Virus record (IMG/VR): IMGVR_UViG_2778261344_000001 | Coordinates: 1-5,060 of that record | From: a virus | Taxonomy: Duplodnaviria > Heunggongvirae > Uroviricota > Caudoviricetes | Direction: 5' to 3' (one strand) | Length of the DNA stretch: 5,060 nucleotides | Part shown: positions 3,001 to 5,060 of the stretch, in pieces | Layout of the letters: the number at the start of each line of letters is the position of its first letter | How positions within the stretch are numbered: position 1 is the stretch's first letter | Made by a program: the position numbers

Positions 3001-5060
3001 GTTGTTCAAACTCAACAATGAGTTTCAGCGCAACAGAATTATCCGGAGTCTGGATTTAAAGTGAAGGAGTGAGCATGAGCGACCTATCATTAACCCAGCC
3101 AAAGCTAAAAGAATGTCCGTTTTGCGGCGGTAATGCTCGTCTGTGGGTTGAGGCCGGAATAAATATTGATGTGTGGGGCTATGCAGAATGTGACCTCTGT
3201 GAAGCCAGGGGGGCATGGGCACCATCAGTTGCTGCGGCGGCTGAAAAATGGAACCGGAGAGCAGGAGATGAAGCAAACCTTTCTGCTTCGCAACGAAGCA
3301 ATCAGAAATAACGCCATAGACGCCATTCTCTCACTACCCATCGACGACAAGTCACCCCACGAAGTCCACGTTAAAGAACCCAAGCGCAGCAAAGCGCAGA
3401 ATGACCGTATGTGGCCGATGCTGAACGATGTTTCGCGTCAGGTGCTATGGCATGGTCAACGGCTGGCGCCGGAAGACTGGAAAGACCTGTTCACTGCCCT
3501 GTGGCTTAAGACCAAAAAACTGGAGCAACGAAGTGTGCCTGGTATCGACGGTGGCGTTGTCATGCTTGGCGTGCGTACCAGCAAAATGCGGAAGGCCAGC
3601 ATGACTGAGCTTATCGAAATCATGTTCTGGTTCGGCTCAGAGCGCAACGTGCGGTGGAGTGATGACTCCCGGCGAGAGTATGAATGGTCACAACGAAAAG
3701 GTAGGGCTGCATGACTATCAAATCAAATACGCCAGCACACGACAAGGACTGCTGGCAAACGCCGCTTTGGCTTTTTGATGCACTGGATATTGAGTTTGGA
3801 TTCTGGCTGGATTCGGCAGCGAGCGACAAAAATGCTCTGTGCGCTCACTGGCTAACTGAGGCCGACGACGCGCTCAATTCTGAGTGGGTAAGCCACGGTG
3901 CAATCTGGAATAACCCACCGTACAGCAATATCAGGCCGTGGGTGGAAAAAGCCGCTGAGCAGTGCATACAACAGCGACAGACGGTAGTTATGCTTGTGCC
4001 AGAGGATATGTCAGTCGGATGGTTCAGCAAGGCTCTGGAGAGTGTTGACGAAGTTCGCATCATCACTGATGGACGGATTAATTTTATCGAACCATCGACA
4101 GGGCTGGAGAAGAAGGGAAACAGCAAAGGCTCCATGCTGCTGATTTGGCGACCGTTCATCAGTCCTCGACGAATGTTTACTACTGTATCCAAAGCGGCAT
4201 TGATGGCGATCGGGCAGGGCGTCAGGAGGGCGGCATGAGGCGACAGCGACGAAGTATCACCGACATCATCTGCGAAAACTGCAAATACCTTCCAACGAAA
4301 CGCTCCAGAAATAAACGCAAGCCAATCCCAAAAGAATCTGACGTAAAAACCTTCAATTACACGGCTCACCTGTGGGATATCCGGTGGCTAAGACATCGTG
4401 CGAGGAAAACAAGGTGATTGACGCGATGATTTATTCGGGGCTATATTCCTCACGCGCCAGCAAAATCTGGCGTCGGGATTGGCGTCCTGGATAGAGACCG
4501 CGACAGATACACGCCGCGAGCGTGTTTTTTATTGTCGTATGCACGCGCACATCTGAATTATGGTGGGCTGTGTGGGGGCGGAGAGATCCGCGCCGGTCGG
4601 TTTCCCGGTTACGCCAACCCTGCACAGTTCACCACCAGACGATTGGCGTCGTCGGTGGTGAGTTATTAAGAAACCACCAGAGGGCGTCATTATGACAACT
4701 CAAATTTCTGTTGAAACTCTCTCCCCGATCACCCATAACCAGATTCCTGTTATTACCACCGAACTTTTGGCGCAGCTTTACGGCACTGAGCCGGTGCGTA
4801 TTCGCCAGAATCATCATGAGAACAAAGTACGCTTCGTTGAAGGGAAACACTTTTTCAAAGTTGTTGGTAATGACCTTAAAGAATTGCGGGTAGCTTTAAA
4901 CTACTCACAAAATTTGCGGGTTACTTTAAGTAACTCACAAAATTTGCAACCATCTTTAAGAGGGTTACAAATTTCCCCGAAAGTGAACCGCCCCGGTTTT
5001 CCTGGAGAGTGTTTTATCTGTGAACTCAGGCTGCCAGATCATCGTTTCTGATGGAAGCAT

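Follow-up and report, generated by a model that had tools for sequence, protein, structure and literature searches.

A tandem array of 30-bp palindromic cassettes in the ant gene of a Stx1a prophage points to a DNA-level signal in ORF6N coding sequence

In phage lambda, the replication origin (ori-lambda) is formed by iterons inside the O gene, which lie between the type-specific N-terminal part and the conserved C-terminal part of the protein. O binding and origin function are both proven, and the number of units varies among lambdoid phages. In this study, we analyzed a stretch of 5,060 nucleotides (IMG/VR record IMGVR_UViG_2778261344_000001, positions 1 to 5,060; hereafter the window), the early-right (O-P-nin) region of a Shiga toxin 1a (Stx1a) prophage, and focused on a tandem array of 30-bp units inside its ant gene, whose product has an ORF6N domain and is predicted to bind DNA. 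The array points to an unrecognised DNA-level signal in the ant coding sequence.

The window also contains a lambda-type origin: in the O gene (444-1382), Tandem Repeats Finder detected four ~20-bp dyad-symmetric in-frame repeats of the CATCCCTCAAAACGAGGGA type at 791-868, which are lambda-type origin iterons. The ant array resembles them in that tandem in-frame dyad units lie in the coding sequence of a DNA-binding protein (predicted, in ant), at the junction of a type-specific N-terminal and a conserved C-terminal part, and in that a need of the DNA would dictate the peptide. It differs in that the O iterons of one phage are mutually similar, whereas the inner arms of the ant units A, B and C are unlike; the basic state of ORF6N genes is a single palindrome and not an array; and O binding and the origin role are proven, whereas the ant site is a candidate from sequence alone. 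Phage HK022 Roi is, like Ant, an "antirepressor-like" protein of the nin region, DNA-binding in Roi and predicted to be so in Ant, and it reportedly binds a site inside the roi gene; unlike Ant, it combines a pRha-type N-terminal with a KilAC C-terminal domain.

Quasi-palindrome hotspots of E. coli (thyA, lacZ) follow the Ripley model, in which the arms of an imperfect inverted repeat are homogenised by template switching. The ORF6N dyad shares with them the imperfect inverted repeats, multi-base "compensatory" changes and local instability, and possibly the arm homogenisation, but the known hotspots are single-species cases, whereas the ORF6N dyad stands at one codon position across phyla. 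The array also behaves like the coding variable-number tandem repeat (VNTR) loci of bacterial and prophage genes, with an in-frame unit and a strain-variable copy number (1 to 4 in ant); unlike those, its units are differing palindromic cassette alleles, and no phase-variation or antigenic role is evident in ant. In phage P1, the cis-acting element oriL is likewise thought to lie within the gene (repL) whose product acts on it, with synonymous substitutions as a probe, but it is an AT-rich origin element rather than a palindrome with covarying arms, and RepL belongs to an unrelated protein family (PMC9948254). The isrK-orf45-anrP arrangement of Gifsy-1 and the c4-icd-ant arrangement of P1 immI match the window in their IsrK/C4-like RNAs, a small coupling open reading frame (ORF) with an ATGA overlap and an antirepressor-like ORF6N gene. 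The Gifsy-1 study describes the orf45-anrP overlap of this type and treats the control of ant/anrP translation, unlike the present work; a term search of its text found no mention of an internal palindrome or repeat (PMC4825925).

The array in ant and the palindrome of ORF6N genes

Tandem Repeats Finder reported a period of 30 bp at 4884-4947 (2.1 copies, 85% matches, score 93), with an overlapping row at 4903-4960. Three units, designated palindromic cassettes A, B and C (Table 1), run in frame from codon 65 of ORF 4692-5051 and start at a codon boundary. A and B are identical at 25/30 positions, and B/C and A/C at 18/30; adjacent 30-mers with at least 25/30 identities are expected 2e-7 times in the window, and the best of 30 shuffles reached 18/30. 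Both the program and direct reading of the DNA therefore agree with the original prediction of 30-bp in-frame tandem units with five mismatches and a degenerate third at 4884-4973. The dyad centre of each unit is the middle T of a TTA codon, and the flanks are Watson-Crick complementary at 10/13 positions in A, 11/13 in B and 11/13 in C. An inverted-repeat search gave arms of 19 nt (84%) for unit B and of 17 nt (88%) for unit C. The inner arms are GTAG-N7-CTAC in A, GTTAC-N5-GTAAC in B and AACC.TC-N5-GA.GGTT in C, so that the predicted inverted repeat was found in each unit, but its exact form, GTTAC-N5-GTAAC, only in B. The five positions at which A and B differ show a compensatory pattern.

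Ant-type genes were sampled as 110 distinct segments out of 170 loci, and 75 non-redundant segments of baseline length were aligned with MAFFT. All samples in this work were gathered with conserved peptide patterns and so are not unbiased, and the covariation controls were shuffles and slid partners, not phylogeny-corrected. The results showed that the best inverted repeat lies at the same codon in nearly all 110 segments, with differing arm sequences. Perfect examples are CCGAGCAGAGGGTCTTAAAGACCCTCTGCTCGG of Roseospira and AATTTGCGACTGACTTAAAGTCAGTCGCAAATT of Acinetobacter, and several palindromes are perfect over 31-33 bp. The aligned centre had 11.3/16 Watson-Crick pairs, compared with 4.0 +/- 1.8 at other centres, and it was the best centre in 93% of the 75 sequences. 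RNAalifold predicted a stem for these segments, with varied pairs at single positions (e.g. CG32/GC30/AU6 and GC16/CG12/AU12/UA11). In the 12-pair helix, 83.7% of the cells were paired, against 61.0 +/- 1.2 after shuffling (reached by 0/500) and 27-34% with slid partners; the covariation score was 0.366, against 0.122 and 0.04-0.07, respectively. The symmetry extends over about +/-13 nt (~27 bp) and is lost only at the three central bases, and an AT-rich centre and CT...AG closing pairs are conserved.

Synonymous recoding of the same Ant-type peptides yielded 6.4/16 pairs (standard deviation of the set mean 0.17), compared with the 11.3 observed. Amino-acid differences between the genes correspond to reverse-complement codon pairs (V/Y, T/S, S/R, H/V, and S-V to C-G), and a CTA/GAG mismatch recurs of necessity, since full complementarity to CTA would require a stop codon. 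The changes in both arms, together with the synonymous codon choice, indicate that the constraint acts at the nucleic-acid level and shapes the peptide (LRxxLxxSQ, SQIVTS). Constraint on the DNA is the most economical reading. The idea of a DNA site embedded in the coding sequence, which had been raised for this array, gains real weight, short of confirmation, from the conserved dyad symmetry.

Canonical ORF6N genes (...NLKSQIVTSSWGG...PYAFTEQG; gut-phage contigs, L170-L249 and L257-L376) have a palindrome at the corresponding site, typically AACTTGAAATCACAAATTGTGACATCAAGTT; the variants TGCCAATTTGGCA (CQFG), TTCCAAATTGGAA (FQIG) and TCGAAAAAATCGA (SKKS) covary. In the first canonical set there were 11.8/14 pairs, compared with 3.5 +/- 1.7 elsewhere and a synonymous null of 5.3, and the aligned centre was the best one in 27/27 genes. 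An independent sample, collected with a YAFTEQG DNA pattern, had the dyad in 30/30 ORF6N genes, and five unrelated genes containing the motif were negative. As read from these alignments, the results show that the palindromic cassette is an intrinsic feature of ORF6N-domain genes, at a fixed codon position, in distant bacteria and in gut phages. The Pfam ORF6N motif itself appears to be shaped by DNA symmetry.

Several individual genes illustrate the form of the cassette. The ORF6N hallmark SQ(I/F/N)(V/A/G)TS is encoded by a 25-33-bp palindrome with a TCACAAATTGTGA core, in which S..V is swapped in a coordinated way to C..G, F..G or S..S. Two Roseospira marina paralogues (L054 and L087) have perfect 33-bp palindromes with the inner arms exchanged (GAGGGTC...GACCCTC and GACCCTC...GAGGGTC), and their peptides read AEGLKDPL and CDPLKEGH, respectively. 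A distant paralogue with ORF6N and KilAC (ANT) domains, which represents a third ORF6N subfamily, lies beside ant in L009 (2531-3301); directly behind strand 3 (DFHEN) it contains the 14-nt palindrome ATTTTCATGAAAAT, which is perfect. It is uninformative on conservation, since identical copies alone were retrieved. In unit A, the heptamer T_TTA_AAC (window 4895-4901, zero frame) has the form of a -1 frameshift slippery site. We dropped it as a candidate, as it lies in the loop or centre of the hairpin and is absent from units B and C; it is probably coincidental.

Cassette alleles, copy number and the recombination boundary

Some E. coli and Salmonella genes (including L166 and P0034) have cassette A as their only unit, and cassette B is the sole unit in Izhakiella (L011), with a near-identical sole unit in Photorhabdus and Xenorhabdus. 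The core of cassette C, AACCATCTTTAAGAGGGTT, is identical in an Acinetobacter locus (L067). Independent +30-bp expansions with unlike cassettes were found in Pectobacterium (HRVTNSDSVK/NDRLTNSQSVA), Citrobacter, Xenorhabdus and another E. coli lineage. Since the cassettes occur alone elsewhere and independent expansions join unlike cassettes, A-B-C is a composite. By this comparison of sequences, A, B and C are shown to be three different alleles of a single palindromic cassette. The best reading of the array is that these alleles were brought together by unequal recombination or replication slippage. Either event would have taken place at the self-complementary outer arms that the cassettes have in common (CACAAA(A)TTTGCG), and the exact B-B copies of other strains would be products of recent slippage.

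Protein and DNA alignments revealed alleles with A only (226 aa), A-C or B-C (234 aa), A-B-C (244 aa, the window type) and A-B-B-C (254 aa), confirming the suggestion of a variable-repeat locus; the locus is a coding VNTR with head-to-tail in-frame units, 1 to 4 per strain. The residues matched by positions 3-86 of the ORF6N profile grow with the number of units, from 12-97 in single-unit proteins to 12-105 in A-C, 12-115 in A-B-C and 12-125 in A-B-B-C, so the repeat is, as had been proposed, an insertion relative to the ORF6N family. Allele frequencies were estimated in 5426 complete E. coli genomes by extrapolation from 60 evenly spaced rows per search. A 134-nt query across the array gave the exact A-B-C form in ~230 records, a pattern diagnostic of A-B-B-C in ~120 and a form shorter by one unit in ~90. 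A B-B 60-mer query gave 230 records at 91.7% (equivalent to A-B) and an exact B-B in ~130, mostly O157:H7. The array is thus a polymorphic marker among Stx prophages (~230 versus ~125 complete genomes with three and four units, respectively), and a literature search found no paper that lists the 30-bp ant repeat as a locus for typing or multiple-locus VNTR analysis.

Among 46 distinct full-length ant genes (L002-L009 and L090-L169), nucleotide diversity was 0.22-0.45 through the palindrome region and 0.04-0.07 from ARSLILWTERG on. This step indicates a mosaic junction inside the ORF6N domain, at the palindrome; hairpin-prone DNA would also account for such a recombination boundary. The Mantel correlation (r) of arm distance was 0.40-0.47 with residues 31-50, 0.27 with residues 51-62, ~0.1 with residues 1-30 and 0.02 with the downstream region, a contrast that is not conclusive, because the regions differ in information content. 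Residues 31-50 surround a predicted helix (34-43), and residues 51-62 are physically nearer the palindrome. The correlation between the arms and residues 31-50 is suggestive of co-evolution, though not conclusive.

A model of a single-unit relative (mean predicted local distance difference test score, pLDDT, 75.7) comprised strands at 13-15, 18-22, 54-58 and 82-86, helices at 23-30, 34-43, 59-70 and 88-98, and a loop at 71-81, which places the palindrome codons 65-73 where helix 59-70 ends and the loop begins. For the 244-aa allele, the model was too poor for use (overall pLDDT 49.9, ~40 in the repeat). A sequence search found no relative with a solved structure, and a fold search with the ORF6N model gave no significant match (all E > 1); the best compact folds, both weak matches, were the winged-helix-like Dachshund (template-modelling (TM) score 0.51) and the APSES protein Mbp1 (TM 0.47).

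A candidate in-gene DNA site and other explanations

We read the array as a variable array of a family-intrinsic, DNA-constrained cassette that would have arisen by recombination or slippage between alleles, and we consider this reading more likely than not. With less confidence, the palindrome would act in cis as a DNA site, an in-gene operator or iteron-like element whose most likely ligand is the dimeric ORF6N protein, and a tandem array would offer several adjacent sites. The layout is that of iterons or operators, with repeated dyad-symmetric units inside the gene of a predicted DNA-binding protein. By analogy with the lambda ori iterons in gene O, we tentatively propose the palindrome as a candidate site for the ORF6N protein, while regarding this particular assignment as somewhat less probable than its opposite. 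A broader proposal, that each ORF6N gene carries a palindromic site read by its own dimeric product, with the site and a recognition region (~31-50) co-evolving as a portable "gene plus operator" or origin-like module, is doubtful on present comparisons, if possible.

Several observations weigh against such a site. The inner arms of A, B and C are unlike within one gene, so that one sequence-specific dimer could hardly read all three units. Proteins P0109 and P0113 have a common palindrome and different residues 31-50, and the Mantel contrast may reflect merely the lower information content of residues 51-62. No second copy of the locus's own palindrome rose above background within +/-1.5 kb, and no CRISPR-like (clustered regularly interspaced short palindromic repeat) or iteron copies of the repeat were found elsewhere in the window. 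Perfection over 31-33 bp exceeds that of usual operators and fits base-pairing or homogenisation by template switching. The HK022 Roi precedent concerns a different N-terminal domain, and the roi genes of HK022, VT2-Sakai and the source genome contain no comparable palindrome in the N-domain part.

A rival reading is a functionless, self-perpetuating quasi-palindrome, derived from an ancestral inverted repeat in which template switching during replication would copy one arm from the other, and tolerated because the helix end and loop that it encodes are permissive; hairpin-prone DNA would then cause the expansions and the recombination boundary as side effects. This process would leave much of what is observed, namely mismatches without a strand bias (on the sense strand of the Ant-type set, 64 G.T versus 72 A.C), a hairpin-like failure of symmetry at only the three central bases, multi-base compensatory differences between A and B, perfection over 31-33 bp, and repeated 30-bp expansions, and homogenisation of inverted repeats by template switching is documented (e.g. 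PMC13100816). We nevertheless consider it rather unlikely, as palindromes are normally deletion-prone and this dyad has been kept at one codon position across low-similarity subfamilies, from Alpha- and Gammaproteobacteria to gut-phage contigs, with a conserved AT-rich centre and CT...AG closing pairs and with arms that correlate with residues 31-50. The same mismatch counts bear on an RNA hairpin, formed by the ant mRNA or by a transcript antisense to it, which could control translation, processing (e.g. by RNase III) or stability, perhaps within the IsrK/C4 control. Folding is strong on both strands (plus strand -30.5 kcal/mol, z -3.45 against shuffles; minus strand -37 kcal/mol, z -5.2, with three clean hairpins), ant lies behind an RNA module of translational control, and the canonical mismatches are mainly sense-strand A.C (17, versus 3 G.T), which equal G.U on the antisense strand. 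A sense-RNA hairpin is unsupported, however, since neither the Ant-type nor the canonical set has an excess of G.T over A.C on that strand. Rfam models gave no match above threshold across the repeat (the one hit, rivX on the minus strand, scored 21.7 bits against a gathering score of 100), and the scans detected no terminator or promoter in the repeat and no terminator-like site in 4692-5060, the sole terminator being that of IsrK at 4509-4535; the hairpin lacks a U-run and so does not qualify as an intrinsic terminator, and nothing resembling a promoter for an antisense RNA was detected. Canonical ORF6N genes, moreover, have the dyad without the IsrK/C4 context, and control by an RNA hairpin is in our estimate improbable.

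Plain recent slippage of an unremarkable coding segment, with the dyad arising by chance, explains the exact 30-bp B-B duplication of the A-B-B-C alleles, and to that extent the slippage envisaged in the original prediction stands for other strains. It does not extend to the window array, whose units are distinct cassette alleles: A and B differ compensatorily at five positions and are each found singly in other lineages, C represents a further allele, and the dyad is conserved across the family far above chance. As an account of the array it is very improbable, and it survives for B-B only. Selection on the 10-residue units as a protein repeat, with DNA symmetry as a by-product, is scarcely credible. 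The in-frame units do share an LxxxLxxxQ pattern, and in the models the insertions fall in the helix end and loop, between strands 3 and 4, but the synonymous-recoding controls (6.4/16 and 5.3/14 pairs, versus 11.3 and 11.8 observed in the Ant-type and canonical sets, respectively) exclude selection at the protein level, and the amino-acid changes fall in reverse-complement codon pairs.

Should the palindrome prove to be a functional DNA site, nucleic acid and not protein function would have shaped part of the widespread ORF6N family of phages and mobile elements, and "antirepressor-like" genes would be self-contained regulatory or replication modules, as gene O with ori-lambda. The SQIVTS/LRxxLxxSQ peptide motif would in that case follow from the requirements of the DNA site, arrays of the A-B-C type would be composite sites readable by proteins of differing specificity from co-resident prophages, and the position of mosaic junctions of the lambdoid nin region inside a domain would be accounted for. 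Few ORF6N or antirepressor-like proteins have a known function, and the palindrome gives a testable handle on them; our literature search found no paper on an internal palindrome in ORF6N, KilA-N or antirepressor genes. Even without a function, the locus would illustrate cleanly, in nature, how the arms of a coding quasi-palindrome are homogenised over long periods and how this drives copy-number change in 30-bp steps.

Gene identity, insertion-sequence truncation and upstream RNA module

In its intact form, the 244-aa ant protein combines an ORF6N domain (residues 12-115) with P22_AR_C (145-216; 83.4 bits); the intact allele scores 67.5-68.3 bits for ORF6N against a cut-off of 27.8. The window ORF matches positions 3-62 only of this profile (PF10543; same cut-off), and its first 292 nt are identical in many Stx phages as well as in VT2-Sakai. 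The gene had been called Roi-like, an identity that we rejected: it is an ant gene by its domain content (ORF6N and P22_AR_C, not pRha and KilAC) and by gene order, lying between ninE and roi/ninG, with the C-terminal part beyond the insertion sequence (IS) in the source genome (L001). The true roi homologue is the next gene (L001 8124-8846), with pRha and KilAC domains; in VT2-Sakai roi, KilAC (ANT, PF03374) scores 113.8 bits. The antirepressor label of ant is an annotation, and functional data exist for Gifsy-1 AnrP only (PMC4825925).

Homology to ant ends after 4983, and from 4984 the DNA is the terminus of an IS element, TGAACCGCCCCGG... (Table 1). In the source genome, this is a 1310-bp element at 6293-7602 with the termini TGAACCGCCCCGG.../...CCGGGGCGGTTCA, flanked at both junctions by a target duplication of AAAG (or AAG), and ant resumes at 7603. 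Its length of ~1.3 kb, its terminal inverted repeats (TGAACCG...) and a transposase annotated with a programmed frameshift identify it as an IS3-family IS629/IS1203 element. The IS cuts ant 10 bp past the array, and the window gene is dead. Its stop at 5051 and the short protein had been noted correctly; since homology to the intact gene ends after 4983, the last 23 codons (4984-5051) are IS DNA, and the insertion explains the short ORF. A frameshift as the cause was rejected, as the IS junction is exact; beyond the element, the remainder of ant follows. In strains 111 and 112, the same allele was hit independently by IS1203, 51 bp to the 3' side (L251 ~546). Two IS629/IS1203 hits 51 bp apart in different Shiga-toxin-producing strains (129 and EL361 versus 111 and 112) suggest recurrent inactivation of ant or an insertion preference beside palindromes; recurrent inactivation in Shiga-toxin-producing strains would be of practical interest.

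Table 1. Features of the ant locus in the window (positions 1 to 5,060)
Feature	Position	Strand	Evidence or remarks
Palindromic cassette A TTGCGGGTAGCTTTAAACTACTCACAAAAT (LRVALNYSQN)	4884..4913	+	Dyad centre 4897
Palindromic cassette B TTGCGGGTTACTTTAAGTAACTCACAAAAT (LRVTLSNSQN)	4914..4943	+	Dyad centre 4927; extended arms 4908-4926 / 4928-4946
Palindromic cassette C TTGCAACCATCTTTAAGAGGGTTACAAATT (LQPSLRGLQI)	4944..4973	+	Dyad centre 4957; arms 4940-4956 / 4958-4974
Stx-phage ant 5' part, codons 1-97 (ORF6N domain), IS-truncated	4692..4983	+	Pfam ORF6N 53.2 bits; 292/292 nt identical to VT2-Sakai ant
IS3-family IS629/IS1203-type element end, runs off the window	4984..5060	- (transposase)	Supplies ORF tail and stop codon 5049-5051
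Promoter-like site	4418-4447	+	Promoter scan
a1/b1 targets of C4-type antisense RNA	4441..4493	+	Rfam RF03163, 50.5 bits (gathering 46.7)
IsrK-like Hfq-binding small RNA	4454..4530	+	Rfam RF01394, 75.5 bits (gathering 50)
IsrK intrinsic terminator	stem 4509-4525, T-run to ~4535	+	Terminator scan
Putative orf45-like coupling ORF	4522..4695	+	ORF list; TGA stop overlaps ant ATG (ATGA)
C4 antisense RNA-like element directly 5' of ant	4556..4639	+	Rfam RF01695, 66.7 bits (gathering 45)

Over positions 4692-5060, the window matches E. coli O103:H2 strain 129 and the swine strain EL361 with 100% identity. The annotated order of the source region is cII, O, P, ren, lar, ninB, a dam-type methylase, ninE and an interrupted "ORF6N domain-containing protein", followed on the 3' side by an IS3-family transposase, a "P22AR C-terminal domain" remainder, a KilAC antirepressor (roi), ninG, ninH, Q and stx1AB; the ORF list of the window is consistent with this order. 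Upstream of ant, the three Rfam matches above their gathering scores identify an antisense-RNA control module of the P1 immI or IsrK type. The same IsrK/C4 arrangement is present in a Salmonella locus (L010), where the a1/b1 match is slightly under the gathering score. By comparison with Gifsy-1, ORF 4522-4695 may be the orf45-like coupling ORF. In some database entries (P0020, P0026-P0028), ant is annotated with an N-terminal extension of 30-44 residues that reads through the C4 RNA region, which is likely a mis-called start codon.

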